A DNA stretch of 64,000 bases from Candidatus Pelearchaeum maunauluense (lineage in GTDB: Archaea; Thermoproteota; Nitrososphaeria_A; Caldarchaeales; Caldarchaeaceae), in contig JANVYQ010000001.1 of NCBI GenBank assembly GCA_030059675.1, positions 256,001 through 320,000 on the forward strand, given 5' to 3'. The stretch's first letter is position 1. Every line of letters starts with the position of its first letter. A model generated the notes under the pieces. The model made no database searches. It was given only the letters and a program-made list of their open reading frames with translations, and was not told where the DNA came from. Position numbers and translations under genes: made by a program. This document shows, one piece after another, positions 11,616 to 43,260 of this stretch.

Positions 11616-11787
11616 CCTAGTAGCCAATAATTGAGTATTATGGTAAAAATTTTCTCATCTAAGCTCATTTCTTGAACAAGAATAAGCTGTACGGTATCTC
11701 TCCATAACTAGCTCCTGCTTCTCGTGAAGATTCACAGAGCATCTACAGCCTGTGGAGCACTTTCTCCACATTTCTACCCTTTTGCTG

Positions 11788-11810
11788 GTTCCATAGGAAA
11801 TGAAGGGGTC
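11788..11810 (+). promoter_or_regulatory. Origin recognition box (ORB)
   Basis: GTTCCATAGGAAATGAAGGGGTC fits the archaeal ORB pattern TCCA-N2-GGAAA plus G-string. Confidence 0.88.
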
Positions 11811-11963
11811 GTTATGGCTGTCTCAACAGGTGAAGAAGTCATATAGCCCAGCCTCAACTCACGCTGGGCTGAATAGCTTACTTTCCTGTCTGGCTGGCCG
11901 TTTGCTGGTCTTATATTGCTGGCCTTCATCTCCCATGGCCAAAACACCAAACAAGCCACCGCC

Positions 11964-11985
11964 ACCCCAACATTTCCTATGGAAC
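11964..11985 (-). promoter_or_regulatory. Origin recognition box (ORB), inverted partner
   Basis: Reverse complement reads GTTCCATAGGAAATGTTGGGGT; first 15 nt identical to the 11788 box. Confidence 0.88.
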
Positions 11986-12104
11986 GCCAATCAACAAACA
12001 ACAGCCAAAAACCAGAATAAATGAAAATACATTTGACAACTTGATACAATTTTCTATTCTTTTAGTCTTAAGTCTTCTATGGATTACGAAGCTATGGAGC
12101 ATAC

Positions 12105-23255: not shown

Positions 23256-24329
23256 TCAATCACTCAACCCAAGCTCCTTAAGCAGTCGTGGGTTTTTCTT
23301 CGCTATTAACTCTGTTAACCGTTCGTAAAATTCGACAGCTTCTTCTAATGCTTTAACCTTCTCTGATTCTAGCGGAGTATATAATGCGCCGAATATCCTC
23401 ATCGCCTTATCGGCCTTCTCCATCTCGGCTTTTATCATCTCAGGCTGCGGCAAATAATACACCTTCTCAACCATACCAGTGTTATGCTCCATCCAAAGGT
23501 CTATCAACTGCTTATTCACCCCTGCGCCTTCTAGCTGTGTCCGAAACCAATTCCGAAAAACATGTGGATGCAAAACATAGGCCGAGCCGTCAGGCGTCTT
23601 CATATCTAAACCTAATCGCTTGAGCAAAGCACCATACTCCTCGTAGAAACGGTTCTTCGGTATTGGTTTCTCAGGATCGCCATTAACGTGAAACACATAT
23701 CCCCTGTTTAGTTTCGCTTCATGAATGTAGCGCTCAAGCTCGGCTTTCAGCTCAGAGAATATAGGAACATCACGGGGGTATCCGCTCTTTGTAATCTCCC
23801 CAGGTAGGTGAATCGTGTTATTTTCAAGGTCAATATATTCAACTCGCAGTTTCAAAGCCTCGCCTAAACGTAATCCTGTCAGAGGCAGGAGATGAAGCAA
23901 CAACCTCATACGTCTAGACCGTGTAGCCATTATTAGCCGCTGCAGCTCGCTTAATGAAGGGATGCGGTCTATCCTGCGCGGTGATTTCTTAGGTAGCTTA
24001 ACCTTCCGCTCAGGTATGCTGATCTCATAATAGTCAAGGAAGGATCGTAGTAGGTAGAGGCGAAACCTTATGCTCTTCGGAGATAACCCCTTCTCAACCA
24101 GCTGGTTTACGAATAGTTGCAGGCCATCCAGTAGTTTACGCCTATTTCCCCTGCCTAACTCGATAAGTTCAGAAATACTAAATACGCCAAGAATATCTCT
24201 AAGCTCCTCCAAGCTCTTAACAAGGGTAGAGTCCTGTCGACGCTTAACCAACTGCGGATTCAGCCTTAAATACGGTTCAATACATTCCTCAACTGATGAC
24301 TCCCCACCACCACGCCCATACCACGACAT
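23256..24329 (-). CDS. Tyrosine recombinase/integrase
   Basis: TGLRLGE (R), TKS (K), HVFR (HxxR), MEH and VYY (Y); abuts tRNA-Lys. Confidence 0.9.
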   Translation of the reverse strand: MSWYGRGGGESSVEECIEPYLRLNPQLVKRRQDSTLVKSLEELRDILGVFSISELIELGRGNRRKLLDGLQLFVNQLVEKGLSPKSIRFRLYLLRSFLDYYEISIPERKVKLPKKSPRRIDRIPSLSELQRLIMATRSRRMRLLLHLLPLTGLRLGEALKLRVEYIDLENNTIHLPGEITKSGYPRDVPIFSELKAELERYIHEAKLNRGYVFHVNGDPEKPIPKNRFYEEYGALLKRLGLDMKTPDGSAYVLHPHVFRNWFRTQLEGAGVNKQLIDLWMEHNTGMVEKVYYLPQPEMIKAEMEKADKAMRIFGALYTPLESEKVKALEEAVEFYERLTELIAKKNPRLLKELGLSD

Positions 24330-24382
24330 CAACAGAAATAGGGAGAGCAAAATATTTAAAAATAGTGTTTAGCACCGAACAT

Positions 24383-24457
24383 GGGCCCGTAGCTCAGCCA
24401 GGATAGAGCACCGGGCTTTTAACCCGGGGGTCGCGGGTTCAAAGCCCGCCGGGCCCG
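24383..24457 (+). tRNA. tRNA-Lys (TTT)
   Basis: GGGCCCG/CGGGCCC acceptor stem, anticodon arm CCGGG-CT TTT AA-CCCGG, GGTTCAAA T-loop; no encoded CCA. Confidence 0.96.
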
Positions 24458-24461
24458 GTTG

Positions 24462-24671: not shown

Positions 24672-26255
24672 TTACATGGAGAGGGCTCCTGCTGCCTTTA
24701 CTCTTATTCTTATGGCGTTTCCTGGTAGGTATGCTAGTGGTATCTCGTCAACTTCTACGACTTGTACTGTGTCTGGTTTGGCTCCTGCTCTTATTGCTTC
24801 TTGTATTGCCATTTCTTTTGCCTGTTTTATCGCTTCGTCGCGACTCATGTGATCTAGTGTGAATATTCTGTCTATCTCTCCGCTTACCTGTGCTATTGCT
24901 GCTCCTATTGCGTTGGCGAACTGGAAGTGTTCTGGCCTTATTACGCGTGAGACTCCCTTCAGCTTGTCGTAGTGTGATGGTGGTATGATTATTCCGCCTC
25001 CACCCACTAGGACGACTGGGAGGGGCTCTGGGCTTGTCTTCATCTTGTCTATTGAGTTCTCCACTAGGCTTATGATTTTGCTTACCGCGCGTGTTAGGAA
25101 GTTGCCGTCAAGGTTCTTGAGTCTGTTTAGGTCTATTCTTGGGTCTTCTATCTTGGCGTAGCCCAATGCCAGTGCTACGTCTGTTGTTGTTATAGTATCT
25201 CCTCCCCATGCGAGGCCTTTTCTAACGATGTCGTAGCCTACGCTCTGCGGGCCTATCTCCACGTCTGAGTCTGTTTTTCTTACTATTGTTCCTCCACCGC
25301 AGCCTATCGCTATTAGGTCTGGCATTCTGAAGTTTGTGCGCACACCGCCTATCTCCACCGCGACCGCCGACTCGCGTGGGAAGCCTCTCACAAGAGCGCC
25401 TACTAGGGTTGTTGTCCCGCCTATGTCTACGACTATTCCGTCTTGTAGCTGTGTTAGGTGTGCTGCTCCCCTTATGCTGTTTGTGGGGCCTGAGGCTACT
25501 GTTCTTATTGGATACTTTCGCGCGTAGTCTGCTGACATTAGTGTGCCGTCGTTTTGGGTGAGGTAGAGCTTGGCCTTGTTGAGGCCTGCTTCGCGCATCG
25601 CGTTTTCAAACGCGCTTATCGCTGCTTCTGCGATGCTTATCACCGCGGCGTTGAGTATAGCCGCGCTCTCCCGCTCAAGGAGCCCTATGCTCCCAATCTC
25701 ATGTGAGAGCGTTACGGGGAAGTTCTGTCCAAGCTCTTCCGCTATTATCTCTGCTGCTCTTTTCTCGTGGTCTGTTGAGACTGGTGAGAAGACTGAGCAT
25801 ATGGCTATTGTCTCGGCTTTCTGTTCGCGCATTTTGCGCGCCGCTTCTCTCAGCTCCTTCTCGTCTAGTGGCGCTATCTCGCGGCCATCGTATTCGTGGC
25901 CGCCTGATATGATTGTCCATAGGTTTCCCACAGCTTCGCGTAGGTCTGCTGGGAATGCGCGTAGGGGCTTTATCGCTAGTGTGGCTGGCTTCGCTATTCG
26001 TATGACGCCAACCCTGTTGAGCCGTTTCCGCTCAACTATCGCGTTGGTGCAGTGCGTGGTTCCCAGCATGGCTGCCTGAATCTCCTCTGGGTCTACGTCG
26101 CTTCCCTTCAGTACATCCCGTAATGCGTTGAGGATTCCCGTTGTTACGTCTGGTGTTGTCTGCGTCTTGACAGCATATACGAGGTTGTTCTTCTCGTCTA
26201 GGATTACGGCGTCGGTGTGTGTTCCGCCTACGTCTATCCCTATTCTGAGCGGCAT
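24672..26255 (-). CDS. Hydantoinase/oxoprolinase A-family protein (copy 1)
   Basis: GIDVGGTHTDAV, QNDGTL, SGPTNS, VDIGGTTT and ANAIGAA. Confidence 0.9.
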   Translation of the reverse strand: MPLRIGIDVGGTHTDAVILDEKNNLVYAVKTQTTPDVTTGILNALRDVLKGSDVDPEEIQAAMLGTTHCTNAIVERKRLNRVGVIRIAKPATLAIKPLRAFPADLREAVGNLWTIISGGHEYDGREIAPLDEKELREAARKMREQKAETIAICSVFSPVSTDHEKRAAEIIAEELGQNFPVTLSHEIGSIGLLERESAAILNAAVISIAEAAISAFENAMREAGLNKAKLYLTQNDGTLMSADYARKYPIRTVASGPTNSIRGAAHLTQLQDGIVVDIGGTTTLVGALVRGFPRESAVAVEIGGVRTNFRMPDLIAIGCGGGTIVRKTDSDVEIGPQSVGYDIVRKGLAWGGDTITTTDVALALGYAKIEDPRIDLNRLKNLDGNFLTRAVSKIISLVENSIDKMKTSPEPLPVVLVGGGGIIIPPSHYDKLKGVSRVIRPEHFQFANAIGAAIAQVSGEIDRIFTLDHMSRDEAIKQAKEMAIQEAIRAGAKPDTVQVVEVDEIPLAYLPGNAIRIRVKAAGALSM

Positions 26256-26265
26256 CTTCCTTTCT

Positions 26266-27342
26266 TCACCTCTTGCACATCCTCTCCTCTATTGGTATGT
26301 AATCTATGTCGTAGCCGAAGTATCTGGGGCCTACTACCTCTAGTGCTTTTGGTGTTCGCCACTTGGGGTTGCATGGGATTCCCACGACTACCGCCCTGTA
26401 TCCGTATCTCAGTCCCTCAGTTGTTATTGGCTGGCCTGTCTCCGCCTCCAATACTGTTATCAGGTCTGGGACGCTCGCGACTATCTCTCCATCCCTTATC
26501 GCTACGAGGTTCTCGTTTTGGAATCTTATCAAAAGCTCGTGGCCTGAGTATTCGTCTATCCCCTCAAACCTGGCCTCCCCTCTGGCGAAGCCAGCGACGG
26601 TTCTGCGCATCACATCAACTATCTTTCCCCTGAATATCTCGTAGCCCTTAACGTATTCAAGCATGGCTTGTATTGGGTTCTTCTTGTTCTCTCTCAGTAT
26701 CCTGCCTATGGTCTCGGCCATCGTGATTGAGCCATGAACGGTTGCTTCCTTGATTTGTTTGCCTGTCATGGTGTATAGCGCTATTACGGCTGAGCCACCC
26801 ATCACCACCGTTGCTGCTCTTGAGATACGCTCCGTCCATATGTTGTCTATAGTGTCTAGCATGACGAGATTCCCCTTCTCATCAACCATTATCATGGGTG
26901 TGGCTTTGACGCCGTAGAGATGGGGGACGACCATCTGTATCTCTGGGAACGCTCTCCCCATGCCGTCGCAATCAACTATAGGCACGCCCAGCCGCGCGGC
27001 TACCGCGAGCGGTATGGTTGAGTTTATGCCACCTGCCTCTATAGACATGGTTGCAACAGCCTTCTTACCAAAGCGCTTCTCAAGTATTCTGAATGCTTCA
27101 AGAGCCTCGTCCCCGCGTGGTATCTTCTCTATGATTACTGTAGGAGCGCCCATCATGGCTGTCGGTATAACGAGGTCATCATCGCTCACCTCTTCTGGGC
27201 TCAGGAGCTTGATGGGGCCATGCTCACTTATCGCGTCTATCGCCATTAGCTTGCCGATATACGGGTCTCCACCGCCTCCTGTTCCGAGAACAGCCGCGCC
27301 TATCGCTATATCCTCCACAGCACGCTCATCCAGCAAGCGCAT
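26266..27342 (-). CDS. DUF917 (S-methyl thiohydantoin desulfurase-like) protein (copy 1)
   Basis: LGTGGGGDP, MGAPT, EAGGIN, DGMGRAFPE, FQNENL and VPDLI. Confidence 0.9.
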   Translation of the reverse strand: MRLLDERAVEDIAIGAAVLGTGGGGDPYIGKLMAIDAISEHGPIKLLSPEEVSDDDLVIPTAMMGAPTVIIEKIPRGDEALEAFRILEKRFGKKAVATMSIEAGGINSTIPLAVAARLGVPIVDCDGMGRAFPEIQMVVPHLYGVKATPMIMVDEKGNLVMLDTIDNIWTERISRAATVVMGGSAVIALYTMTGKQIKEATVHGSITMAETIGRILRENKKNPIQAMLEYVKGYEIFRGKIVDVMRRTVAGFARGEARFEGIDEYSGHELLIRFQNENLVAIRDGEIVASVPDLITVLEAETGQPITTEGLRYGYRAVVVGIPCNPKWRTPKALEVVGPRYFGYDIDYIPIEERMCKR

Positions 27343-27478: not shown

Positions 27479-28885
27479 ATGTCGTCTCAAAAGGTCTCTA
27501 GGAGGAAGTTCATCGCCATCGCTGGCGGTGCTGTAATAGTAGCGGCGGCGGCAGGACTTGCCTACACGACCCTCACGACACCGCAGCAGAGAACGCTCAG
27601 ATACTCCACGCACCCATTCTACTTCCCGCAGGACGCGGAGCAGAAGTTTGAGGAGGGGAACCAGAATCTGAATGTGGAAGTAACTTATGAGGAGTTCTTC
27701 GTCATGACGCAGAAGCAGCTGGCCAATCCCCAGACCTGGGATGTGGCCAGCTCTGGCAGGTATAGGATTATCATAGACGCTGGTATTGTTAGGCCTATAC
27801 CTGTTGAGAAGATTCCGCGCTGGCAGCCTGACAAGGTCTTGAGAATCTTCCAAGAGCCGCAGCGCTTCCTAAAGGATGGCGACCTTGAGGAGACCGTCAA
27901 ACGGTTTAACAAGCTAATATGGTTTGAGCCGAACAAGGTGTTTAGCGCCGTTCCGATTATGTGGAACTTTGACTCGCTGACCTATCTTCCTGAGATGCTA
28001 CCATATCAAGAGCGCGGCGCCCAGTATCGTGATGTAGAGTATGGGGAGCTCTGGAACCCAGAGTGGAAGGGACACACAGCGATGCAGGACGAGGCCTTCA
28101 CAGTCTTCACAGAGGTGGCCAACTACCTAGACGCGACAAAGCAGATTACCATAACGAGCGCCATCACAAACCTGAGCCAGCAGGAGGTTGACCAAATATA
28201 CGACTACCTACTCCCAATAGTTAAGGACGGTTTCATCAAGACCTTCTGGTTCAAATACGGTGATATAGTCTCGCTTATGTCCACGCGTGAGATATGGATA
28301 GCGAGTACTTGGCAGCCTGTTAGTTTTGACACGCGTAAGGCTGGGACTCCAGCATACTATGCTGCGCTCAAGCATGGGCCGTTCTTCTGGTATAACTCAA
28401 CATATGTGTCCAAGATGATAGACGACGCTACCGCTGAGGAGGCTATGAAGCTGGTTAACTGGCAGCTCAGCCTCTTTACGCAGCTCCTCTACACTAGGCA
28501 GGGTTATCCAACACCCGCTTATGGGTGGGATGACTATAAAAATGCTATGGGAGACGAGTTTTATGACTGGTTCTATAATGGGAAGGCTACATACCTGCCT
28601 ATTGACGAGGTTCTTAAGATAACGTTCCCAGACAAGCCTGACTTGGCTGAGCTTCCAGAGAGGTTGCAGCAGGCTCTCTTCGTCCCAGACCTATACTTCA
28701 AGCACTTCTGGGTTGGTGAGCCACCTAGGACAGGCTCCCCGCATCCGAAGGGGAACATAAGAGACCTGGGCTCTGTCCAGGAGAAGGAGGAGATGACGCG
28801 CTACTTCCTCTCACCAGACCTGCCAGACAACAACGACTACTATGTCAAGAAGTATGAGGAGCTGAAGGCCCTGGTTCCCAAGTAA
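27479..28885 (+). CDS. ABC substrate-binding protein (PotD-like) with Tat signal
   Basis: SRRKFI twin-arginine motif plus hydrophobic segment; LWNPEWKG; adjacent PotABC-like genes. Confidence 0.75.
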   Translation: MSSQKVSRRKFIAIAGGAVIVAAAAGLAYTTLTTPQQRTLRYSTHPFYFPQDAEQKFEEGNQNLNVEVTYEEFFVMTQKQLANPQTWDVASSGRYRIIIDAGIVRPIPVEKIPRWQPDKVLRIFQEPQRFLKDGDLEETVKRFNKLIWFEPNKVFSAVPIMWNFDSLTYLPEMLPYQERGAQYRDVEYGELWNPEWKGHTAMQDEAFTVFTEVANYLDATKQITITSAITNLSQQEVDQIYDYLLPIVKDGFIKTFWFKYGDIVSLMSTREIWIASTWQPVSFDTRKAGTPAYYAALKHGPFFWYNSTYVSKMIDDATAEEAMKLVNWQLSLFTQLLYTRQGYPTPAYGWDDYKNAMGDEFYDWFYNGKATYLPIDEVLKITFPDKPDLAELPERLQQALFVPDLYFKHFWVGEPPRTGSPHPKGNIRDLGSVQEKEEMTRYFLSPDLPDNNDYYVKKYEELKALVPK

Positions 28886-28902: not shown

Positions 28903-30735
28903 TCATATCTCCAGCGTCTCCAAACCATAGTCTCGTCTCATCTCCTTTTTTCTTTCTTCAGCCTTGCGTGTCCGCTTGAGGTAGTAGTATTCTTGTTCCG
29001 ATAGTTTTCTTCCCCTGATTCCAGCGTCTAGCCGTAGGATTGTGTATGCCGCTGTTAGAGCGTTTTCTATTGCTGCTTTCTTTGTCTGGCTGTGGTCTAT
29101 TATCAGCTCACTCCACGTGTCGCTGATTTCCTGGCGCTCTGCGTTGAAGCCGTGTGAAACACCCCCCGTATTGTGTTCCCGCCTAACAGCGGTGAGCGTG
29201 TTAATCGGGTCTGCGCCAGCGTTCTGGGCTAGGAAGCTTATCAGCTCCTCAAACGCCCCAGTAATCCATATGAGGGCCAGCTGAACCCTTGACGGTAGTT
29301 TTAGCGCATATTCCATGAGTGCTTTACTTATCTCCTCCTCGGTGGCGCCTCCCCCAGGTACGAAGCGCGGAGAGCTACGTACCGCGTGGATGAACGTGGT
29401 TGCGCTCTTTATCTTCTCCTCAAAGTCCATCAACCCACGCTCATCGGGGCTCGCGAGGATTACTGTTAGCTGATGCCTGTTCTTACAGCCCCTGAAGAAC
29501 ATCCACTCCTTGTTGATTATCTTCTTGGACTCAACCAGCTCGGCATAGCCGAGGTCTTCCTGTGAGAGCTTGTTAAATGCTTTTGTGGGTTTTGCTCCTG
29601 TTGCCTCTGCTAGGCTTCTAATCTCTGGTGGTGAGAAGCGGCGTATTATCATGGCCTTGTTCTCTATGAATGTGGGGAATACTGCCTCGTCTACGCCTTT
29701 CTCCACCACGACGACGTTGGCCCCGCTCTCCAGTATCTCCCTGGCGTAGTTGATGAGTAGCGCCCTACGCGATGCATGTCCCCTCGCCACCTCGCCTGGC
29801 TCTTCCCACTCATGGCTTATTCTAAGGCTACGCCCAACCTTCTGCGGCATCACCAGCCCGCCCAGTAGGATGGCAATCCGCGCGCCGTGTATGGTCTTGG
29901 TTATCTCTGGGTGCGGTAGCTCCTTCGGATACGCGACGCCGTTAATCAGCACCGAGTCGGATATTGAGGAGCTTTTCATGGTTCTGAAGTCTATGAGCTC
30001 GCGTATGGGCTTCACAGCGGTGTGGCTGGGCGTTATGTGCTCCAGTATCTCGCGGGTTATCTTGGCCGCCTTCTCGGCGTGAGATGGAGAAACCCAGCTC
30101 TTGGCCCTTCTTATGAGCGTCTCCTCAACATGCGGGCTTAGTGTAATCTCTTTTGAGAGTCTATCCACCACCTCGCCAGCTATGCGCAGCGCCTCGCTCA
30201 CAGCGCTTAGGCAGTCCATCCTGCTCACGTATCCACGCGCTATCAGCTCGCTACAGTTCCTCACCACCAGCGCCGCCAGGAGACTAGTATATACGCTGTG
30301 GTCCCCATACTCGCGCTCCAGCGAGAGGCCAGCACCCAGCAAAATCTGAGCGAGAGGATTAATTATCTTCACATGCCGCATAACCAGGCTAAGGCTGTTG
30401 GAAGTTATGACGAGACCACGCTGGTCTGTCATCATCTTATACATCTTATACGGCCCCAGCATGGTCTTGAGAAAATCAACAACCCATGAGGCGGTTATGC
30501 GCACATGGTCGGTGAACTCGCCGCCAGCTAGATATGCGGCATCTAGGCTCAAGACAGCAGAGGGGAAGCCGTGCTTGTATATCGTCGGCTGTGGGACTCT
30601 CTCATGCGGTAGTGGTAAGAGCGTGGAGTCGCGCTCAGACACCTTACGATAGCCAGCATCAAGGCGCTTCAGCAGCTCGCGCTGGACAACATCTGGGATG
30701 AAGTCGCGTCCATGCCTTTCGTCTGCCACGCTCAT
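28903..30735 (-). CDS. Divergent group II chaperonin (thermosome-like) with degenerate ATPase motifs
   Basis: KTMLGP, DSVLING, GANVVVVEKGVD, PGGGATE, LAQNAG and AYTILRLD retained; GDGTT replaced by GDHSV. Confidence 0.85.
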   Translation of the reverse strand: MSVADERHGRDFIPDVVQRELLKRLDAGYRKVSERDSTLLPLPHERVPQPTIYKHGFPSAVLSLDAAYLAGGEFTDHVRITASWVVDFLKTMLGPYKMYKMMTDQRGLVITSNSLSLVMRHVKIINPLAQILLGAGLSLEREYGDHSVYTSLLAALVVRNCSELIARGYVSRMDCLSAVSEALRIAGEVVDRLSKEITLSPHVEETLIRRAKSWVSPSHAEKAAKITREILEHITPSHTAVKPIRELIDFRTMKSSSISDSVLINGVAYPKELPHPEITKTIHGARIAILLGGLVMPQKVGRSLRISHEWEEPGEVARGHASRRALLINYAREILESGANVVVVEKGVDEAVFPTFIENKAMIIRRFSPPEIRSLAEATGAKPTKAFNKLSQEDLGYAELVESKKIINKEWMFFRGCKNRHQLTVILASPDERGLMDFEEKIKSATTFIHAVRSSPRFVPGGGATEEEISKALMEYALKLPSRVQLALIWITGAFEELISFLAQNAGADPINTLTAVRREHNTGGVSHGFNAERQEISDTWSELIIDHSQTKKAAIENALTAAYTILRLDAGIRGRKLSEQEYYYLKRTRKAEERKKEMRRDYGLETLEI

Positions 30736-30760: not shown

Positions 30761-31576
30761 CTACTGCCTCACGGTCCTGGTCAGGAGGTAGGCGAAGACT
30801 AGGAAGCCGAGGAATGACACGGCTGAGATTAGGGTTCCAGCAGCATACCACTTGGGCGTCAGCGGATTAACGCCGAGCTGTGTGTTGATAAATGTTGAGA
30901 GCGTCCCTATCCCTTTCATCGCGAACTGAGTCCTAATCACCTCGCCCCACGAGAGCAGAAAACCGAGAATCGCCGCCGAGATTACCTCGTAGATTATGAG
31001 GGGCAGGGTTATCCTCCTGAAAATCATCAGCGGAGGAGCCTTAAGCACAGCCGCGGCCTGCTCGTAGAACAGCAGGTTGGGGTCAAAGCGCGCCATCATC
31101 AGTATAAGGCCGAACGGGACAACGTAGATTACGTTTATCAGCGCCGCGCTCCAGAAGGAGAACGGAAGGTTGAGCAGCCTGAAGAGGAAGTTAACGCCCA
31201 GGCCGACGGTTACGCCTGGCGTGAGGAATCCCAGGAGGAAGAGGTAGAAGAGGAAGTTGCGGCCTGCCATTCTACGTCTAAACGCTAGTGCGGTGATTGT
31301 AACCAGCGCCATCGCCATAAGCGCTACTACTATTGAAACCGTGAAGGAGTTCCGTAGCGCTGCGAAGAACTGCCTATCGTGGAAGAGCGAGACATACGCG
31401 GCGTATTCGTACCCTGTCGGCGGCTTAAGATACCAGTCAAGGGTGAAGCGCTCTATCGGGAAGCTGATGTTGGCGCCTGACTTGAATGAGAGGAGGACGA
31501 CGAAGACTAGAGGTAGGTAGATTATCAGTATTATGATGGCGATGTACGTCTTTACCAGGAAGTCTGGTATCTTCAT
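30761..31576 (-). CDS. ABC permease (PotC-like)
   Basis: YLPL..LLSF, FTLDWY and an EAA-like loop. Confidence 0.88.
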   Translation of the reverse strand: MKIPDFLVKTYIAIIILIIYLPLVFVVLLSFKSGANISFPIERFTLDWYLKPPTGYEYAAYVSLFHDRQFFAALRNSFTVSIVVALMAMALVTITALAFRRRMAGRNFLFYLFLLGFLTPGVTVGLGVNFLFRLLNLPFSFWSAALINVIYVVPFGLILMMARFDPNLLFYEQAAAVLKAPPLMIFRRITLPLIIYEVISAAILGFLLSWGEVIRTQFAMKGIGTLSTFINTQLGVNPLTPKWYAAGTLISAVSFLGFLVFAYLLTRTVRQ

Positions 31577-31577
31577 T

Positions 31578-32429
31578 CTACTCCACCAGCTTCTTTATAT
31601 CAACTATCTTGAAGAGTATGACCAGCACCGCCAGCGAGATTAGTATGAGTACCGTTGACTGCGTCGCCGCGTATGGCCAGACGAAGTTGGCCGCGAAGTT
31701 GGCTACCGAGAGTCCGAGAACCTGTATCCCACCAGCCCATAGCGAGGGCGTGATATAGTCTCCCAGAGTGTTGACGAAGACGAAGGTCAGCCCCACTATC
31801 ACGCCTGGAAGCGAGAGCTTGAAGATAATCTCATAGAAGACCCTATGCGGCGGAGACTTCAACACACGGGCAGCGTTTATCAGGTCTGGGTCTATCCTAC
31901 TCAGGGCAAGGTATATCGGGAATATCATGAAGAGGAGGTTTGACTGAAGCCAGATAATTATCAGCGTCCAGCGCGAGAAGAGGAGCGAGACAGGCTGATG
32001 AACTATGTTGAAGTATTGGAGCAGGTAATTGACTATTCCGCTCTCGCCCAGTATGGGTATCCAGGCTATCGTCCTGACGTTCCAGTCTATCAGGAAAGGC
32101 ACGAGGAGTAGGCTGATTATGAGGTTCCTCGTCTTTATGCTCTTTATCCTGAATGTCATGAAGTAGGCTGCTGGGTATCCTACGAGTAGTGCTACTAGGC
32201 TGGCGAGTAATGACATCCCGAAGGTGTTGGCTAGGATTGTGGGCGTCTGTGGTGAGGTGAAGAACTCAATATAGTTCTCCACCGTGAATATGGGGTTGGT
32301 GAAGCTGAACTCCTGCATGAAGCTTATCACAACGGTAAGGAGAAGTGGTATGACTAGAAAGAAGGCTATGACCAGCAGCCCAGGTAGCAGTAGTATATAG
32401 TTCATTATCTTCGGCGGTCTGGTGCTCAT
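31578..32429 (-). CDS. ABC permease (PotB-like)
   Basis: GYPAAY, FMIFPIY..RID..INAA and SLPGV..GDYITP. Confidence 0.88.
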   Translation of the reverse strand: MSTRPPKIMNYILLLPGLLVIAFFLVIPLLLTVVISFMQEFSFTNPIFTVENYIEFFTSPQTPTILANTFGMSLLASLVALLVGYPAAYFMTFRIKSIKTRNLIISLLLVPFLIDWNVRTIAWIPILGESGIVNYLLQYFNIVHQPVSLLFSRWTLIIIWLQSNLLFMIFPIYLALSRIDPDLINAARVLKSPPHRVFYEIIFKLSLPGVIVGLTFVFVNTLGDYITPSLWAGGIQVLGLSVANFAANFVWPYAATQSTVLILISLAVLVILFKIVDIKKLVE

Positions 32430-32430
32430 C

Positions 32431-33564
32431 TCACTTCCCGTAGATAAGCTCCTCTATATCCACGCCCTCAACCACGCTGGGCTTGGACACGATAGTCGCC
32501 TTCGTGTAGGGCCACGTAAGCGTGAGCTGTTCACCAACCTTGGCTGTGAAGGGCTCGTTGGCGGAGATTACCGACTTAACCCTTGTCTGCGCGTCTGCGC
32601 TGAAGACAAGCTCTAGGAAGTGGCCGAAGTAGTAGTATGTGTTGAAATATACCGAGAGCCTGTTATCCTGGCCACTATCCTCCCTAGATACGCGCACATG
32701 CTCCGGCCTGACGATGTATGCCACCCTCCTGCCGACGAGGTCGCGCGCGTTCTCCGTCGCTGGGTGGCGTGCCTTGAATGTGCCGAACTCCGTCTTAACC
32801 CAAACCGCGTCTGGGGAGATCTCCTCAACGGTGCCCGCGAAGGTGTTGAGCTCGCCGACGAAGCGGGCTGCGAAGAGCGTCTGGGGGTCGTTGTATATCT
32901 CTGTGGGCGTGCCTATCTGCTCCACTAGGCCGCTGTTCATTATGAGCATCCTATCAGCCAGGCTCAAACCATGCTCCTGGTCGTGTGTGGTGAGCATGAA
33001 GACGCCGCCAATCTCGCGGTGAACCTCCTTCAACATCTCCGCAAACTTGCGCTGTAGGCGGTAGTCAACGTGGCTGAGCGGCTCGTCCAGGAGGAGGACG
33101 CTGGGCCTTATTATGAGCGCCCGCGCCAGAGCTACGCGCTGTCTCTGGCCGCCGCTTATCTCGTTGGGCATCCTCTCCTCAAGCCCCTCAATATGGAGTA
33201 GGCGCGTCATCTTTCTCACCTCGCGGTCAATCTCATCCTTATCCTTGCCGAGCATCCTGAGGCCGAATGCTATGTTCTCATAGACGGTCATGTGGGGGAA
33301 GAGGGCGAAGTTCTCCAGCATCATGGAAACATCCCGCCTATGCGGCGGGACATTCTTCATATCCTCACCCTTGATGTAGAGCTCTCCAGAATCATAGTCA
33401 AGTATCCCCGCGATTATCCTCAGCAGGGTACTCTTACCACAGCCACTAGGCCCCATGATGATGAAGAACTCGTTCTCATCAACCTCAAACGAGATTTCCC
33501 TAAGTGCCTCTACAGCTCCTTTGTAGCGTTTGGCCAGTTTGCGGGCTTCTATGACCTTAGCCAC
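32431..33564 (-). CDS. ABC ATP-binding protein (PotA-like, TOBE domain)
   Basis: GPSGCGKST, ISGGQRQR, LLDEP and THDQE. Confidence 0.92.
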   Translation of the reverse strand: MAKVIEARKLAKRYKGAVEALREISFEVDENEFFIIMGPSGCGKSTLLRIIAGILDYDSGELYIKGEDMKNVPPHRRDVSMMLENFALFPHMTVYENIAFGLRMLGKDKDEIDREVRKMTRLLHIEGLEERMPNEISGGQRQRVALARALIIRPSVLLLDEPLSHVDYRLQRKFAEMLKEVHREIGGVFMLTTHDQEHGLSLADRMLIMNSGLVEQIGTPTEIYNDPQTLFAARFVGELNTFAGTVEEISPDAVWVKTEFGTFKARHPATENARDLVGRRVAYIVRPEHVRVSREDSGQDNRLSVYFNTYYYFGHFLELVFSADAQTRVKSVISANEPFTAKVGEQLTLTWPYTKATIVSKPSVVEGVDIEELIYGK

Positions 33565-33605: not shown

Positions 33606-34367
33606 CTATATGAAGCTGACTGTCTCCACCTCCTTAAACTGTGATGGTATCCTCCTGTATTTGGGGCGTGGTGTGGGGTATGATGTTCTGCTGTGGCTTA
33701 TGCCCATAGACACTAGCATCTCCGCATACTTGACCTGCGCTATCCCAGGGTCTATGACAGGTATCCCAACAGCATCCTGAACCTCCCGCGCCATTCCAAT
33801 CATACCCGTGCATCCAAGTATAGCCACATCAGCCCCATCCTGCTCAACAGCCTTACGCGTCTCCTCCACAAGGAGGCGCCTAACCTCATCCCGCTTCTTC
33901 TCCAAATCCAAGACAGGGACATTAACATAACGGACTGAAGCAAGCCTATGGTTAAACCCATACTCCCTAACCTTCCTGGAGAAGAGGGGTAGAGTCTCTT
34001 TCAAGACCGTTACTATTGAGAATTTCTCACCAAGAGTGGATGCTATGCTCATCGTGGCTATGAGTGGGCCTACCACAGGCTTGTTCACCGCCTCGCGTAC
34101 CGAGTGGAGCGCGGGGTCTCCCATACAGTCTATTATTATCGCGTCATAATCCTGCTTCGCCGCGCGTACTGCTTTCTCAACTATCCAGGGCGCGGCCAGC
34201 TCCTCATCAATATATGTCTCTATTGAAGCTGGTCCGAAATCCAGCGCGTCTACGACGAACTTTGTTCCTGGGCTTACTGCACGCTTAATCTCCTCCCACG
34301 TGACTGGCTCTAAGTCGCTGTTCTTCAGGATTGGGAGCAGCACGTATAGTTTCATGTTGCGGCTCAC
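33606..34367 (-). CDS. Hydantoin racemase (Asp/Glu/hydantoin racemase family)
   Basis: GPASIE, IDCMGDP and ILGCTGM (two catalytic Cys). Confidence 0.88.
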   Translation of the reverse strand: MSRNMKLYVLLPILKNSDLEPVTWEEIKRAVSPGTKFVVDALDFGPASIETYIDEELAAPWIVEKAVRAAKQDYDAIIIDCMGDPALHSVREAVNKPVVGPLIATMSIASTLGEKFSIVTVLKETLPLFSRKVREYGFNHRLASVRYVNVPVLDLEKKRDEVRRLLVEETRKAVEQDGADVAILGCTGMIGMAREVQDAVGIPVIDPGIAQVKYAEMLVSMGISHSRTSYPTPRPKYRRIPSQFKEVETVSFI

Positions 34368-34445: not shown

Positions 34446-36035
34446 TTATGCCTGGAGCTCGCCGGCAGCCTTGATGCGCACGCGGACGGCGTTGCTGGGT
34501 AAGTATGTCAGGAAGACCTCGTCAATGTCCACGACTTCTACAGTATCCTTCTTAGCTCCAGCTTTAACGGCCTCCTCCACCGCGAGTTGTTTAGCGCGGT
34601 TCATGACCTCGCTCCTGCTCGTGTTGTCCAGTGAGAAGACCTTCTCAATCTCGCCTCCAACCTGGGCTATCGCCGCGCCGAGGGCGTTGGCGTACTGGAA
34701 TGCCTGCGGCCTAATCACCTTAGACACGCCCCTGATGGAGTCGTACCTCTCAGGGGGTATGATTATCCCGCCGCCCCCGACGAGAACCATGGGCATATCC
34801 TCCTTCCGCGTCTTCACACGCTCAACAGCATCCTCAAGCATGGCCACTATCTTGTTCGCAACCCTCTCCAGCGTTGGGCGGTCTAGGCTCTTTAGACGCT
34901 CAGGCTTCACGTTGGGCTCTTCTATCCTGGCGTAGCCCAGCGCTATCGCCACGTCGGTAGTGGTGAGCGTGTCCCCTCCCCACGCGATCGCGCGCTTCTC
35001 CAGCTCGTAGCCGACGCTCTCAGGTCCTATGCTGAAGCCGTCTCCAGAGAGCTTGACGACAGTTCCGCCGCCGCAGCCGAAGGATACTAGGTCTGGCATT
35101 CTGAAGTTTGTGCGCACACCGCCAACCTCAACTGCCGCGGCAGACTGGCGTGGGAAACCGTTAACCAGCATGCCAGCGAGCATCGTGGTGCCCCCAATAT
35201 CAACCACTATCGCATCTTTGAGGTTCGTCAGGAATGAGGCGCCCCTAAAGCTGTTGGTCGGGCCAGAAGCTATCGTGAGTATCGGATACTGCTTCGCGTA
35301 CTCAACAGACATGAGCGTCCCGTCGTTCTGCGAGAAGTAGAGCTTTGCATGGATGTCGCGCTCCTCGCATGCTTTCTGTATCGCTTCGGTGGCTGACTGA
35401 GCCACCTTAAACAGCGCAGCGTTAAGTATCGTCGCGTTCTCCCTCTCAATCAGCCCTATCCTGCCTATCTTATGCGAGAGCGAGATATGGACACCATCTC
35501 CAGCCAGCTCGCGGATTATGTCATGGACGCGCTGCTCCTGCTCTGGTATGACTGGAGAGAAGACCCCAGATACCGCGAATGCTTCTGCGCCCTTCTGGAG
35601 AGCGTCCCTCACAGCGGCCCTAACCTCACCATCGCTAAACTCCCCTATCTTCCTACCATCATAGTCGTAGCCGCCCTTCACCGTGTACCAAAGCTCGCCG
35701 CCGAGAGCGCTGCGCAGGTCGTGTGGCCACCTATACATGGGCGGGATAGCCTTCCCAGCAGGCTCGCAGATACGTATAACAGCAACACGCGCGAGCCTCC
35801 TCCTCTCGGTAATCGCGTTTATACAGTGAGTAGTCCCAATCATCACATACCTTATATCAGAGACGGAAACGCCGCTGGTCTCCAACGCCAAGTCAAGGCT
35901 GGCGATTATCCCCTGAGTAACGTCTGGCGTGGTGTTCGTCTTCACCGCCGCTATAATCTCGTTCTTATCCGAGACTATGACCGCATCAGTATGCGTGCCG
36001 CCCACGTCAATACCAACCTTCAACGCCATACACAA
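34446..36035 (-). CDS. Hydantoinase/oxoprolinase A-family protein (copy 2)
   Basis: Same motifs as 24672-26255. Confidence 0.9.
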   Translation of the reverse strand: MCMALKVGIDVGGTHTDAVIVSDKNEIIAAVKTNTTPDVTQGIIASLDLALETSGVSVSDIRYVMIGTTHCINAITERRRLARVAVIRICEPAGKAIPPMYRWPHDLRSALGGELWYTVKGGYDYDGRKIGEFSDGEVRAAVRDALQKGAEAFAVSGVFSPVIPEQEQRVHDIIRELAGDGVHISLSHKIGRIGLIERENATILNAALFKVAQSATEAIQKACEERDIHAKLYFSQNDGTLMSVEYAKQYPILTIASGPTNSFRGASFLTNLKDAIVVDIGGTTMLAGMLVNGFPRQSAAAVEVGGVRTNFRMPDLVSFGCGGGTVVKLSGDGFSIGPESVGYELEKRAIAWGGDTLTTTDVAIALGYARIEEPNVKPERLKSLDRPTLERVANKIVAMLEDAVERVKTRKEDMPMVLVGGGGIIIPPERYDSIRGVSKVIRPQAFQYANALGAAIAQVGGEIEKVFSLDNTSRSEVMNRAKQLAVEEAVKAGAKKDTVEVVDIDEVFLTYLPSNAVRVRIKAAGELQA

Positions 36036-37199
36036 TCACCCAAGCCTCTCACGGTACTTCTTCTCCTTCTCAGGCGGGAGGCGGGCTCTCCGATAATACT
36101 CCCTATGGAGCAGCTCCAGCGGCGTGAAGTCAAAGTCGTAGCCAAAGTATCTGGGGCCCCATACCTTTAGAGCCTCTGGAGTCCTCATTATCTCTGGTGT
36201 CGGTATTCCTATCACCATGACCCTGAAGCCGTAACGTAGGTTCTCCGTCGTTATCGGGAGAGCTCTCTCCATGTCTAGTATTGAGATTATGTCTGGGACT
36301 GAGGCGATTACTTTCCCGTCAACCTTGGCCACGAGGTTCTCGTTTTGGAATGTGATTGAGAGCCTGCTTCCCTGATACTCGTCCAGCCCCTCTATCTCCA
36401 CGCGGCCTACTGCGAAGCCAGCGGTGGTTTGCCTCTCTATGTCTATAATCTTCCCGCGGAAGAGCGGTATGGCCTTCCCGTAGTTCGTCTCCTCGGTAAC
36501 CTCCATAACCCTCTCCAGCGGCGTCTTCCCCGTCTTTGCCGCATGTCGTATAGCGTCGCCTATCTTTATCGCTAGCGAGACGCTGTAGTGTATCCCGGTT
36601 CTCTTCACCTGCTCGCCTGTCATGGCGTACTCGGCCAGGTGGGAGGCGCCTCCCATCCTGATTGTGATTCCGCGCGCGAGCCACTCAAGCTGGTAGTTAT
36701 CTACCGACTCTATGATGCATGAGTTTCCACGCTCATCGGACACGACGGCGGGAGCGCCGCTTATGCCGTATATGTGGAAGGTCTCCATCTGGAGCTCCGG
36801 GAATGCTCTACCCATCCCATCTGCATCAACCACTGGAAGCCCAGTCCTCGCGGCCACGTTGAACGGCATCGTAGAGTTTATCCCGCCAGACTCAATCGGC
36901 ATAGTGGCGTCTGCCTTCCTGCCGAGATGCTTCTCCAGCTTACGCATAGACCTAACAGTCTCCTCTCCAGACGGTATCCTCTCGTTCATTATCGTTGGAG
37001 CGCCCATCATGGCCGTCGGTATGATGAACATGTCGTCTGGAATCTTGTTGGGGTCTAGAAGCTCCACCTCACCATGCTCCTCTATGGCGCGCATCGCCAT
37101 CAGCATCCCCACGTAGGGGTCTCCTCCTCCCCCAGCTCCCAATATAGCCGCTCCTATAGCTAGGCTCTCCAGCTCATCAACACCAACCTTCACAATCAA
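36036..37199 (-). CDS. DUF917 protein (copy 2)
   Basis: LGAGGGGDP, DGMGRAFPE and FQNENL. Confidence 0.9.
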   Translation of the reverse strand: MIVKVGVDELESLAIGAAILGAGGGGDPYVGMLMAMRAIEEHGEVELLDPNKIPDDMFIIPTAMMGAPTIMNERIPSGEETVRSMRKLEKHLGRKADATMPIESGGINSTMPFNVAARTGLPVVDADGMGRAFPELQMETFHIYGISGAPAVVSDERGNSCIIESVDNYQLEWLARGITIRMGGASHLAEYAMTGEQVKRTGIHYSVSLAIKIGDAIRHAAKTGKTPLERVMEVTEETNYGKAIPLFRGKIIDIERQTTAGFAVGRVEIEGLDEYQGSRLSITFQNENLVAKVDGKVIASVPDIISILDMERALPITTENLRYGFRVMVIGIPTPEIMRTPEALKVWGPRYFGYDFDFTPLELLHREYYRRARLPPEKEKKYRERLG

Positions 37200-37207: not shown

Positions 37208-37519
37208 CTAGCGCCTACCTCGCCTAGCCTTCATCTCATCAACACAAAGAGCTATCAGCCTGTCAATAAGAGCGACAAACTTCTCCTCAGACTCCATCAC
37301 AACATACTTCTCGCGGTCAATCATCTCCTTAACCTCGCTCAGAAACTTGTCAAACTTCTCCCCCTCTATCTTCTGGCCAAGGGCTAGAACCTTGCTCGCG
37401 CCATCAACGAGGCGTAGGGGGCCGTAGATATGCGGCTCATCAACACAGCCGCGCGCCGCTGTGAGGAAGAAGAGCGTAAGGTCCATGAAGTCTTGGCTCA
37501 GCTGCTTCCCACTCATCAC
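37208..37519 (-). CDS. DUF6092-like small protein
   Basis: TAARGCVDEPHIYGPLRLVD motif. Confidence 0.7.
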   Translation of the reverse strand: MMSGKQLSQDFMDLTLFFLTAARGCVDEPHIYGPLRLVDGASKVLALGQKIEGEKFDKFLSEVKEMIDREKYVVMESEEKFVALIDRLIALCVDEMKARRGRR

Positions 37520-38046
37520 AGCTCCACCCCATGCCTGTTCAGATACGTTATACTTCCTCCTTCGCGGCGTTTCAACGGTTTTGGCCTATCCTTTGCTGGG
37601 TAGCCAACTTGCAGGAGCACGTCGGTCCTGAAGGTGTCTGGTATGTCCAGAACCTTCCTAATGCCGACCTCGCTGTATGACTTGGTGAAGCATGTTCCAA
37701 GCCCCATGGCGACCGCGGCTATGGCTGCGTTCTCCGCGGCGGCTCCAGAATCTATCAACGAGCAGACATCGCGGCCAAGCCTGCCGAGGCCGTGCTCAGC
37801 CACCTCCAGGTCTGTGTATATCAGCAGGGCTGCTGGGGCGTTGCTCAGAAAGCCAGGCGCTATCTTCCTAATCATGTCAATCGTATCGGGGTCGTCTATC
37901 ACCATGACGCGGCGGTATGGCGTGTTCCCGCCAGTAGGAGCCTTATGAGCAGCCCACGCTAGCTGTAGCAGCTTATCACGCTCAACTGGCTTGTCCTCGT
38001 AGTGCCGCACCGCTACACGCTTCCTAATAGCATCAAATACATTCAC
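37516..38046 (-). CDS. Nitroreductase family flavoprotein
   Basis: AIRKRVAVRHY, APTGGN, GLGTC and VGYP. Confidence 0.88.
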   Translation of the reverse strand: MNVFDAIRKRVAVRHYEDKPVERDKLLQLAWAAHKAPTGGNTPYRRVMVIDDPDTIDMIRKIAPGFLSNAPAALLIYTDLEVAEHGLGRLGRDVCSLIDSGAAAENAAIAAVAMGLGTCFTKSYSEVGIRKVLDIPDTFRTDVLLQVGYPAKDRPKPLKRREGGSITYLNRHGVEL

Positions 38047-41528: not shown

Positions 41529-42578
41529 TCACCAGCTCCAGAACCTCTCCACTACTACGCCGCTGCGCGGCTCCCGTATAGCGGAATATACTGCCAGGGC
41601 TAGTGAGATTACGTAGTCGTCATGCACTCCTTCGGGGGCTTCGTAGCGTGTCCCGCCCTTCCCCAGCTTCCTCTGGAACATGCTGAGATGATTTATCAGC
41701 TCAGTCGCGTCCGCTGGTATTGTTAGCCGCCTGTTCTGGATTAGGTTGCAGAGGGTAGTCTCTAGAGCTTCCTTGATGCTTGAGGTTATAGTAATCCCCT
41801 CGGTCTGCGGCAACTTTGACGCGAGCCGCTCATAGAGCGGCAGCCCCATCCCAGTCTTATCAACAGCTATGCACACAGGCCTAAGCCGCGCCCCCGCATC
41901 CTCAATAACTCTTAGCTGCTGGCTGAAGTCTGCTCCGCGGAGCTCGCGTAGGTATATTATGCGCAGGCCACCATCGGGCAGTAGCTCCACGCCCGTTATG
42001 ACCGTTGAGTCGCGGTATCTCCCGAAGTCTATGCCCATGAAGACTGGGTTCTCCACGCGCTCAGGCTCAGGAGTATAGTCCGAGACGCATGCGAGTATGG
42101 CGTCGTATGGTATGAGGGCGCCGCGCTCGTCCAGAAACTCCAGCTCCATCTCCTGCCTAAACTCGGTATGCGTTAGTATTGTGCGGAGCTCTCTAATCTC
42201 TTCCTCGCTTATGTGCCTGCATTCGGAGTAGTGAGCGCTGTGTAGGCTCCAGCCCTTTTTCTTCCTTCCCGCTTGGTATGCTTCGTAGAACCAGCCTCTC
42301 TTTCCCTTTGGTGTGGAGATTAGCGTTATCCTCCCGCGTTGGGCTGTTGTTGTGAAGGCTGTCGCTGTCTTGAGCTGGAAGTCGTCTCTGAACATGGCTG
42401 CCTCGTCTATGTAGATGTGGTCGGCGCGGTAGCCTCTCACGCCATCAGGGTTGTTGGGCAGGCTAACTATCCGCGAGCTGTTTGGAAACTCCACACGCGT
42501 CCGCGTCTCGCTCACAACAGCGCTGAAACGATACACCTCACCCTCAAAACGGATGCTAACATCCTGGAAGCTCCTCAA
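41529..42578 (-). pseudogene. Terminase large subunit (Terminase_6-like), lacking Walker A region
   Basis: RGY..IYIDEAA, ISTP.G..GWFY, FRQE, GIDFGR..DSTV, VDKTGMG and HDDYVISLALA. Confidence 0.8.
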
Positions 42579-43260
42579 GAGCTCGCCGCGTGGCTTCTAG
42601 AGAGCTTATGAGCAGGCCGTGAAGAGAGCCAGCGACGTTCCCAGCGTCAACGCCCAGCTTTGACAGGATTTTCCTGAACTCCTCGTTGGTTACTATCCCG
42701 TCCCGCATTGCGTCTGCAAGGCCTTCAACCGTGTTGAGCAGTAGCTTACTGGACTCGCCCGCGCCCAGTAGCTGGAGCTGTAGAGCCTGCTGAACCATGC
42801 TGTATGTTTGGGTTATGTAGTTGAGCAGCGACGCAGGCGCTGCTAGTCTCTCCCTGCTACGCCTAGCCTCCTCCGTGAGCTCCACATCGTAGCCCAGCGC
42901 CTTACTAACCGCGACGACCACGTCGTAGAAGTCTGATGCAACCACTACCGCGCTGCCTAATGCTGCGAAGCCCTTGGATGCTCTCTCAACGGCCTGCACC
43001 AGCTCCTCAAGCTGCCTACGCGCTTCTTCAGCGCCTGCGCTTAGCGTGTTGAGCTGCTCAGCCCCAAGCTCGGCGAGTTGCCTAAGACCTTCTGGAACGG
43101 CCTCGCCAGCCTGCTCAGCTTCAGCCATCGACTCGCGTATATCATCCATGAGTATGCCAAGAGGCTCAGCCATCTTCAGGACTTCCTGCCGCGTGAGCCT
43201 CCTCATCTCAACCCGCGCGCGTATCCACCTACCAGCCTCCTCCTCGGTAATCCTACCCAA
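42556..43260 (-). pseudogene. Helical tape-measure-like protein fragment
   Basis: Ala/Glu/Leu-rich amphipathic helices; runs directly into the terminase fragment. Confidence 0.4.

Follow-up and report, generated by a model that had tools for sequence, protein, structure and literature searches.

The chaperonin-like gene and its locus

The stretch of DNA analyzed here, referred to as the window, comprises 64,000 nucleotides of the hot-spring archaeon Candidatus Pelearchaeum maunauluense (assembly GCA_030059675.1, contig JANVYQ010000001.1, positions 256,001 to 320,000). Our subject is a gene for a tailed group II chaperonin-like protein with a degenerate ATP site (P0001, 610 aa; 28903..30735, minus strand), delimited by its open reading frame and translation and assigned by Pfam, NCBIfam, AlphaFold2 (AF2) and Foldseek. 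It lies among the genes of a PotABCD-like ABC importer. A previous reading of the letters alone (the sequence-only reading) had reported an intact frame at this place, leaving its strand unstated, and the frame indeed contains no internal stop. Its spacing of 25 bp from a PotC-like permease gene on the same strand is likewise as reported, and a GGAG sits 2 nt 5' of the ATG.

Upstream on the minus strand lie the genes of the PotC-like permease (30761..31576), the PotB-like permease (31578..32429) and a PotA-like ABC ATPase with a C-terminal TOBE-type regulatory domain (32431..33564). On the plus strand, the gene of a PotD-like solute-binding protein (SBP; P0012, 468 aa; 27479..28885) with a twin-arginine N-terminus (SRRKFIAIAGG) converges on the chaperonin-like gene, the two stop codons being 17 bp apart. 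These assignments rest on Pfam and NCBIfam.

The protein matches the Pfam profile Cpn60_TCP1 (PF00118) with 287.4 bits against a cut-off of 34.3, residues 86-573 corresponding to profile positions 2-486 of 490. Because the profile is covered almost end to end, all three chaperonin domains are present. An AF2 model computed from 15 family members reaches a mean predicted local distance difference test (pLDDT) score of 81.4 and a predicted template modelling (pTM) score of 0.75; only residues 1-14 and 37-65, the tip of the lid (299-311) and the tail are of low confidence, and N- and C-terminal strands are predicted at E52-70 and E571-574. The best Foldseek matches in the PDB are Mm-cpn, the Thermococcus KS-1 chaperonin and the T. 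acidophilum thermosome, with template modelling scores by target of 0.82-0.88 (3rus, 1q2v, 1a6d, 3izk). Model and matches thus reveal the three-domain architecture together with the helical-protrusion region, and the equatorial, intermediate and apical landmarks noticed earlier are confirmed.

Membership in a named thermosome family is a different matter. All NCBIfam thermosome and CCT models stay far under their cut-offs, the best being thermosome alpha with 239 versus 450 bits; the scores for NF041082, NF041083 and TIGR02339 are 239.1 versus 450, 234.4 versus 400 and 233.0 versus 671.1. The host genome encodes three canonical group II chaperonins in addition to the tailed paralog, which is 25-29% identical to canonical subunits.

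At both ends the protein extends beyond the chaperonin core, as had been noticed before. Ahead of the first chaperonin strand stand about 50-65 residues; alignments, identity and selection values delimit a clade-specific N-terminal extension of residues 1-65 (30541..30735, minus strand). Its conserved core in the alignments is LLPLPHERVPQPTIY (residues 39-53; 30577-30621, minus strand), wherein P41, L42, H44, E45 and P48 are invariant among 15 sequences. The C-terminal tail is charged as described, with 11 Lys/Arg and 8 Asp/Glu in residues 576-610. By alignments and tail profile matches, residues 575-610 (28906..29013, minus strand) form a conserved element that serves as lineage marker, with the consensus R-K-L-S-E-x-E-x-Y-Y-x-K-R...R-D-Y-G-L-E-T-L-E.

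The ATP site was located by HMMER and MAFFT alignments. According to the available part of PMC5635000, the Asp and the three Thr of the P-loop GDGTTT bind Mg and phosphates, the 'ND' of the stem-loop holds a catalytic Asp, and a Lys in the nucleotide-sensing loop of group II chaperonins senses the gamma-phosphate. The four motif losses proposed from the letters reappear in the alignments, all on the minus strand. GPxGMDK is reduced to GPYKMYK (residues 94-100; 30436..30456), the stem-loop TNDG to SNSL with Ser in place of the catalytic Asp (residues 112-115; 30391..30402), the P-loop GDGTTT to GDHSVY (residues 144-149; 30289..30306), and the segment holding the catalytic Asp of the intermediate domain to EEKIKSAT, again with Ser for Asp (residues 439-446; 29398..29421). 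Within GDHSVY the Asp is kept, Gly has become His, and two of the three Thr are gone, the last replaced by Tyr, which leaves one Thr/Ser of three. The nucleotide-sensing-loop region, KSWVSPSH (residues 212-219; 30079..30102, minus strand), is shortened by a deletion of four residues relative to a canonical paralog and has neither Lys nor Arg in the aligned column, an alignment that is less certain than those of the other motifs. The loop VPGGGATE is kept (residues 459-466; 29338..29361, minus strand), with G461 and G463 invariant.

Five ATP determinants were scored on a 164-sequence alignment, made by a faster method, so that single-column calls carry some alignment uncertainty. One of the five is left in the window protein, namely the P-loop Asp D145, and the three canonical paralogs of the host keep 5, 5 and 4. 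The GDGTTT P-loop, the two catalytic Asp and the sensing Lys of a functional thermosome are hence all missing. Judged by these replacements, the protein very probably no longer hydrolyses ATP, and very probably does not bind phosphate either.

Phylogeny, selection and genomic linkage

A profile built from 15 orthologs was searched against 1.84 billion representatives and gave 9842 matches, the best 150 of which were inspected for the tail. A subset of these 150 shares a common conserved C-terminal tail with the consensus of roughly R-K-L-S-E-P-E-x-Y-Y-x-K-R-x-x-G-T-S-P-E ... R-D-Y-G-x-E. The corresponding tail profile A2 (42 positions) marks 38 of the 165 tree sequences and scores the window protein with 55.0 bits (E 7e-17; 59.5 bits in the genome search), and the motif was found in no PDB chain (best E 0.35).

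In a FastTree tree of 165 rows, the 126 untailed sequences, including the three canonical paralogs of the host, form one clade with a support of 99, and all tailed sequences fall outside. The sole untailed sequence among the tailed part is P0140 (485 aa), which ends ahead of the tail. An IQ-TREE tree under LG+G4 was computed from 31 tailed sequences, seven near-duplicate tailed rows having been dropped, and 30 untailed ones (the three host paralogs and 27 random rows). It reveals a single split between tailed and untailed sequences, with a support in the Shimodaira-Hasegawa-like approximate likelihood ratio test (SH-aLRT) of 96 on all columns and of 94 on the shared core columns (residues 70-574); the latter value means that the tail itself does not drive the split. 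All five ATP determinants occur in 64 of the 126 untailed sequences versus only one of the 38 tailed ones (P0024), and the window protein belongs to the most derived and most degenerate tailed subclade.

These trees, which are unrooted and in which long-branch attraction of fast-evolving sequences may play a part, place the protein in a separate, undescribed tail-bearing lineage outside all canonical thermosomes sampled. The earlier description as a thermosome paralog lacking ATPase motifs stands with respect to an intact chaperonin paralog with a degenerate site and falls with respect to recent kinship with alpha-, beta- or gamma-type subunits. A recent duplication of the host alpha, beta or gamma subunit was considered and rejected on these trees.

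Orthologs do exist. Of 41 related genomes, the one that holds the window included, 10 contain full-length matches without internal stop that comprise the N-terminal extension. They are distributed over both g1 genomes (91% identity), both g2 genomes (42%) and all six g7 genomes (32-34%); in the same search no ortholog with the N-terminal extension was found in the 13 g3 genomes or in g4, g5, g6, g8, g9 and g10. The carriers, Candidatus Pelearchaeum, 'archaeon HR01' and Candidatus Terraquivivens, are members of the Caldarchaeales (formerly Aigarchaeota). In all eight relatives that were extracted the frame is intact, with 590-613 aa. With conserved copies in at least 14 genomes, the degenerate protein is more than a chance occurrence.

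Selection was assessed by the ratio of nonsynonymous to synonymous substitution rates (omega; Nei-Gojobori). Against the same-genus genome G001 the gene has an omega of 0.145, based on 57 nonsynonymous and 105 synonymous differences, and 12 neighbouring genes of the same pair range from 0.022 to 0.063. Three g7 pairs give 0.081-0.094 for the paralog and 0.029-0.066 for the transporter genes; values within g2 are unusable owing to saturated synonymous sites. An omega of 0.08-0.15 in four independent pairs, well below 1, indicates purifying selection on the tailed paralog. In good agreement with its relaxed omega relative to the neighbours, the paralog shows an amino-acid identity of only 33-41% between genera, versus 55-81% for the SBP and PotA/B/C. 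The sequence-only reading had itself named missing orthologs, a ratio near 1 and unconserved linkage as observations that would speak against it, and none of the three was encountered.

Constraint is unevenly distributed along the protein. Across eight representatives, with approximate domain boundaries, the mean identity is highest in the N-terminal extension (residues 14-54, 0.54), followed by the tail (residues 576-610, 0.50), which reaches 0.65 between g1 and g7. The core parts follow with 0.41 for equatorial-C, 0.40 for the apical domain, 0.32 for equatorial-N, 0.27-0.29 for the intermediate domain (intermediate-N 0.27) and 0.25 for the lid. Codons 1-100 have the lowest omega within the gene (0.059). 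Thus, selection acts mainly on the new termini. As judged by the same regional identities, it is weakest on the parts that would couple ATP to lid closure.

The gene neighbourhood is conserved along with the protein. In 16 of 16 assessable loci the SBP gene and/or the PotB/C genes are immediately adjacent to the tailed paralog, in four gene orders; three further loci (L028, L033, L061) were left out, as contig ends lie too near the gene. Thirteen paralogs stand tail-to-tail with the SBP gene, two stand tail-to-tail with the end of an SBP-potB-potC operon, and one is the last gene of an SBP-potB-potC-potA-potA operon. As a control, the same metagenome scan, with a 4-sequence alignment (A4) as query, yielded 40 untailed chaperonin loci, none of which has an SBP, PotB or PotC neighbour. 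In g1 and g2, potA-potB-potC-paralog share one strand and the SBP gene is convergent. In g7, potA-potB-potC-SBP share one strand with the paralog convergent and its upstream region beside a glutamate dehydrogenase gene. In g13 and L032, the paralog is divergent from a racemase gene and convergent with the SBP gene, and potABC lie a few kb off. SBP-potB-potC converges on the paralog in G382 and L076, and L093 carries SBP-potB-potC-potA-potA-paralog as one co-directional string. Since adjacency is retained in four gene orders, the pairing has survived rearrangement. It holds even in G382, which belongs to another family and in which the paralog is 25% and the SBP 29-31% identical. At L061, the locus encoding the ATP-intact P0024, a racemase gene of the cluster type lies immediately upstream.

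Co-occurrence was examined in 401 genomes drawn evenly from the phylum, with a threshold of E <= 1e-25 for the SBP family. The tail profile matches 16 of them, 14 genuinely; the matches in G287 and G357 are canonical thermosomes with lysine-/glutamate-rich ends and no transporter nearby, and were rejected. The SBP family occurs in 15 genomes, in 14 of them together with the tailed paralog. Read together, these sequences depict an archaeal lineage that has progressively lost its ATP site and whose genes remain associated with one ABC importer in no fewer than four arrangements.

A service to the hydantoin island of the window, considered possible in the sequence-only reading, finds no such backing: the conserved partner is the importer with SBP, PotB and PotC. 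Hydantoinase A is absent from the clusters of g7, g13 and G382, and a core association with it was rejected. Hydantoinase A, the S-Me-THD-like genes, the nitroreductase and DUF6092 often accompany the paralog, though not in every cluster. As the hydantoinase genes come and go and the importer stays, the core partner is the importer.

The remaining cluster genes of the window are all encoded on the minus strand. A gene of the Asp/Glu/hydantoin racemase family (33606..34367; Pfam, synteny) is a frequent but inconstant member of the cluster. Hydantoinase-A-like and S-Me-THD-like (DUF917) genes occur in two copies assigned by Pfam and NCBIfam, copy 1 at 24672..27342 and copy 2, present in g1 and g2, at 34446..37199; the copies share 57% and 51-52% identity. 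The hydantoinase-A-like genes were seen without a hydantoinase-B partner, and NCBIfam gives a weak similarity to thiohydantoin desulfurases. A pair of DUF6092 and nitroreductase-family genes (37208..38046; synteny) is conserved across genera, near the chaperonin-like gene or its cluster in L018, L019, L032, L033, L054 and L055. At L033 the pair lies immediately upstream of the chaperonin-like gene.

Proposed function and competing explanations

The SBP offers a clue to what the importer might require. Members of its family have 468-540 aa, match SBP_bac_8 weakly (26 bits) and begin with an RR motif (SRRKF[IL]A, SRRRFI, NRRTA or SRRGY), a hydrophobic stretch and a Thr/Pro-rich linker; the RR motifs are present in five genera (g1, g2, g7, g13 and G382). 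The host genome encodes TatC of the twin-arginine translocation (Tat) system. A strict Tat-motif scan of the genome leaves about four convincing N-termini, namely those of NosZ, a PQQ-type dehydrogenase, a Bmp-family SBP and the importer SBP. Tat substrates fold before export. With its Tat-type signal-anchor the importer SBP would therefore fold in the cytoplasm, which makes a cytoplasmic factor dedicated to it a coherent reading. In the 76 clusters of the SBP family, Bathyarchaeia and Thaumarchaeota labels are accompanied by one bacterial Zixibacteria metagenome-assembled genome (MAG), which hints at importer transfer between domains.

We propose that the window protein is an ATP-independent, client-dedicated chaperonin-like factor for the importer, probably for its SBP, and put the probability of this explanation slightly below one half (about 0.45). 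The group II chaperonin fold would have been kept and the use of ATP lost in genes that travel with a PotABCD-like importer. The paralog would act as a chaperone or assembly factor of this importer, its likeliest client being the large SBP with the twin-arginine signal-anchor, folded in the cytoplasm and then exported. Lid and ATP-coupling machinery appear relaxed. Should the protein form a ring, N-terminal extension and tail would line the cavity floor, where we take them to be client- or partner-binding elements. Both termini of a chaperonin lie at the bottom of the cavity of the ring. Eight copies of about 100 extra residues would then fill much of the cavity, so that a classical folding cage seems unlikely. 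Binding to the SBP or another importer subunit, the holdase or assembly role, the oligomeric state, and handover to an ATP-active thermosome as opposed to acting alone are those parts of the proposal that we infer.

A further-reaching version is offered only tentatively. According to it, the lineage is ancient, began as an ATP-active, importer-dedicated chaperonin of the P0024 type and lost the use of ATP in the Caldarchaeales; by means of its two terminal peptides it would now escort the Tat-exported SBP or cap the importer, as an independent counterpart of BBS6/10/12.

Several observations weigh against a factor dedicated to the SBP. Relative to its neighbours the paralog is relaxed about 2-6-fold, as might likewise be seen if its role were less constrained and non-essential. 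The Bmp-family SBP of the same genome is of the Tat type and has no such chaperonin-like partner; Tat export alone does not, therefore, explain the need for a factor. In G054 (91% complete) SBP, racemase and potCBA genes are accompanied by only three canonical-type chaperonins and no tailed paralog, so SBPs of this family do not strictly require the factor. Conversely, G031 has an intact paralog next to an SBP gene with an in-frame TGA (L024, ~11400-12545); the alignment of this SBP begins only at about residue 92-99 of the query, and potABC are absent from the 20-kb locus. The case may reflect a MAG error, or else a role of the paralog beyond the SBP or a paralog that has outlived its presumed client. 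In three of the four gene orders the paralog is convergent with the transporter genes and not co-transcribed with them. Finally, three residues of the former P-loop are still constrained among 15 sequences: G144 does not vary, and D145 and Y149 reach a conservation of 90% or more. The pocket may accordingly still act, and it is this conservation that keeps a ligand-sensing role in the discussion.

Foremost among the alternatives, although we consider it unlikely, is a non-catalytic subunit in rings of the three canonical thermosome subunits, which it would modulate in the manner of the low-ATPase subunits of CCT. In that case the importer linkage would mean no more than co-regulation, or importer subunits would be recruited to an ATP-active hetero-ring. 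CCT and BBS6/10/12 provide precedents, three canonical host genes are available as partners, and equatorial-C is among the better-conserved parts of the core (0.41). The predicted terminal strands (E52-70, E571-574) would belong to the inter-subunit sheet, in which the C-terminal strand of chaperonins sits according to the available part of PMC5635000. However, the 13 g3 genomes have the same kind of canonical set and not a single copy of the paralog, so that the thermosome can do without it. A general modulator would not be expected to occur so strictly with one importer (14 of 15 genomes) either, and the tailed lineage stands outside all canonical thermosomes. The sub-version in which the protein, as an adaptor, delivers importer subunits to the thermosome merges with the dedicated importer factor proposed above.

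Somewhat less probable still is a regulator or sensor of the importer, in which the former nucleotide pocket binds another small molecule, such as a nucleotide-like signal or a ring compound taken up by the importer, and the termini dock on PotA and thereby gate uptake. Such a role would account for a pocket that is not randomised: besides the P-loop residues named above, the GGG loop is kept, GDH[STA][VIT]Y is common to the g1 and g2 lines, and GDGAVY is fixed in g7. It would also suit the termini as the most conserved parts of the protein, the C-terminal TOBE-type regulatory domain of PotA, and the position of the L093 gene downstream of two potA genes in one operon. Yet the residues of stem-loop and sensing loop vary by subclade, which resembles decay more than a new shared site, and the moderate conservation of the apical domain (0.40) is what would be expected if the binding of substrate proteins were kept. 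We know of no precedent for a ligand sensor with a chaperonin fold.

A published table suggests a third alternative, a 'heat tolerance' chaperonin carried by a virus, which we regard as very improbable. Section 27 and Table 3 of PMC10547907 list, among provirus-encoded genes of Caldarchaeales including Pelearchaeum, an 'archaeal chaperonin - heat tolerance' next to spermidine/putrescine ABC proteins, N-methylhydantoinase A, hydantoin racemase, a VirB11-type ATPase and an aminotransferase. The window carries just this set of genes, and the 'archaeal chaperonin' of the table may or may not be the gene studied here. Phage-type genes do flank the island. A tyrosine integrase (23256-24350) adjoins tRNA-Lys(TTT) (24382-24458) on one side, and a truncated terminase large subunit of 349 aa (41529-42578; PHROG match of 112 bits) lies on the other, 17 kb away. 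In a second genus, a contig end carries short integrase- and terminase-like fragments immediately behind potC (G328; L054, 18708-19277).

Nevertheless, neither an integrase nor a terminase is matched in 13 of 15 related loci. In G001 the tRNA-Lys adjoins the cluster, but the 2.5 kb preceding the tRNA contain no homolog of the integrase, and in g7 the cluster is syntenic within wholly different flanks (glutamate dehydrogenase, peptidase A24, PGI). No att repeat of at least 14 nucleotides was found, as no stretch of this length from the tRNA-Lys region recurs elsewhere in the window. There was no tblastn match to the protein in 50,697 phage records and no relative in 2.9 million viral contigs, and in PHROGs a phage GroEL family was matched only in part, with 50 bits. 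Besides, a dead ATP site is not that of a generic heat-shock chaperonin, and the listing of such a gene as a provirus-borne 'heat tolerance' chaperonin is a style of annotation that the dead site corrects. We read the phage genes as neighbouring remnants that drew a chromosomal cluster into an automated prophage call; such remnants probably explain the published VIBRANT/VirSorter call of a matching gene set in the genus. Lying on the far side of the tRNA-Lys as seen from the cluster, the integrase gene seems to have been inserted separately and recently. The terminase adjoins a weak tape-measure-like reading frame (41529-43260 in all) and looks like a prophage remnant.

That the gene is a decaying duplicate on its way to a pseudogene, as lost ATP motifs, faster evolution than all neighbours and a patchy distribution might suggest, is already contradicted by the selection data (omega 0.08-0.15 in four independent pairs), by intact frames in the relatives, by strongly conserved clade-specific termini and by a linkage kept at 25% identity, and is hardly to be credited.

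Comparison with known systems

The closest system in terms of fold is the archaeal thermosome, with which the protein shares the three domains, the built-in lid region, the GGG loop and the terminal strands. In contrast to it, the window protein scores 233-239 bits against cut-offs of 400-671, has lost four of five ATP determinants, carries an additional conserved N-terminal extension and C-terminal tail, and is linked to an importer rather than standing alone.

Group III is represented by Ch-CPN of Carboxydothermus. Like the tailed lineage, it is a thermosome-like line outside classical group II with an altered or shortened nucleotide-sensing loop; however, as described in the available part of PMC5635000, it keeps GDGTTT and both catalytic Asp, has Arg for the sensing Lys and is an active ATPase. 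Instead of the bacterial host, the short-loop Arg and the intact P-loop and Asp of group III, we find an archaeal host and a loss of the P-loop and both Asp. Our trees contain no identified group III sequence.

With BBS6/MKKS, BBS10 and BBS12, the protein shares a diverged group II fold that would be devoted to one dedicated client or complex. The BBS proteins are derived from CCT and serve the assembly of the BBSome, a ciliary coat complex, whereas the window protein belongs to an independent archaeal lineage with other insertions and would have a membrane importer as partner. In client-dedicated GroEL paralogs of bacteria an extra chaperonin copy is likewise tied to one pathway, e.g., to nitrogen-fixation or secondary-metabolite genes, but these are group I chaperonins with intact ATP sites and the window protein is group II-like with a dead one. 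The role we propose is also that of the Tat chaperones TorD, DmsD and NapD, dedicated cytoplasmic factors beside a twin-arginine substrate that they hold until it is competent for export. They serve cofactor-containing enzymes, not solute-binding proteins, and are unrelated to the window protein in sequence and fold; in Pfam the latter matches only Cpn60_TCP1. By analogy, it may thus work most like BBS6/10/12 or like a Tat-substrate escort, being a member of neither family.

To our knowledge, chaperonin folds without ATPase activity that serve a single dedicated client are known only from eukaryotes (BBS6/10/12). In openly searchable full text, subscription journals and supplements lying outside this scope, we found no description of the tailed lineage or of a linkage between chaperonin and importer. 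The available parts of PMC12696368 and PMC9246946 mention neither, and in that of PMC10547907 chaperonins appear only in the Table 3 entry discussed above and in a pangenome reference to GroEL. Should the proposed function be correct, the lineage would be the founding prokaryotic 'pseudo-chaperonin' system and the first member of the chaperonin family to be functionally wired to membrane transport. Textbook chaperonins are ATP-driven folding cages, and the lineage raises the question of what their fold does without ATP. It also leads one to ask whether the large Tat-type binding proteins of thermophiles need a private chaperone, and how client-specific chaperonins originate.

Three minor observations concern other chaperonins. 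In a language-model search, the nearest cluster is not one of archaeal thermosomes but an unnamed Cpn60_TCP1 cluster of 580 aa, about half eukaryotic and with Chordata as commonest phylum (score 0.97); it serves as a lead only. The third canonical paralog of the host (L003, G000:C3, 570 aa) is mildly degenerate, with SGDG, GDGVTT and Gln for the sensing-loop Lys, and it also has a long and unusual C-terminus. The sequences P0015 (1057 aa) and P0021 (1047 aa) each contain two stretches matching the chaperonin profile and no tail motif, and may be tandem double-chaperonin fusions.

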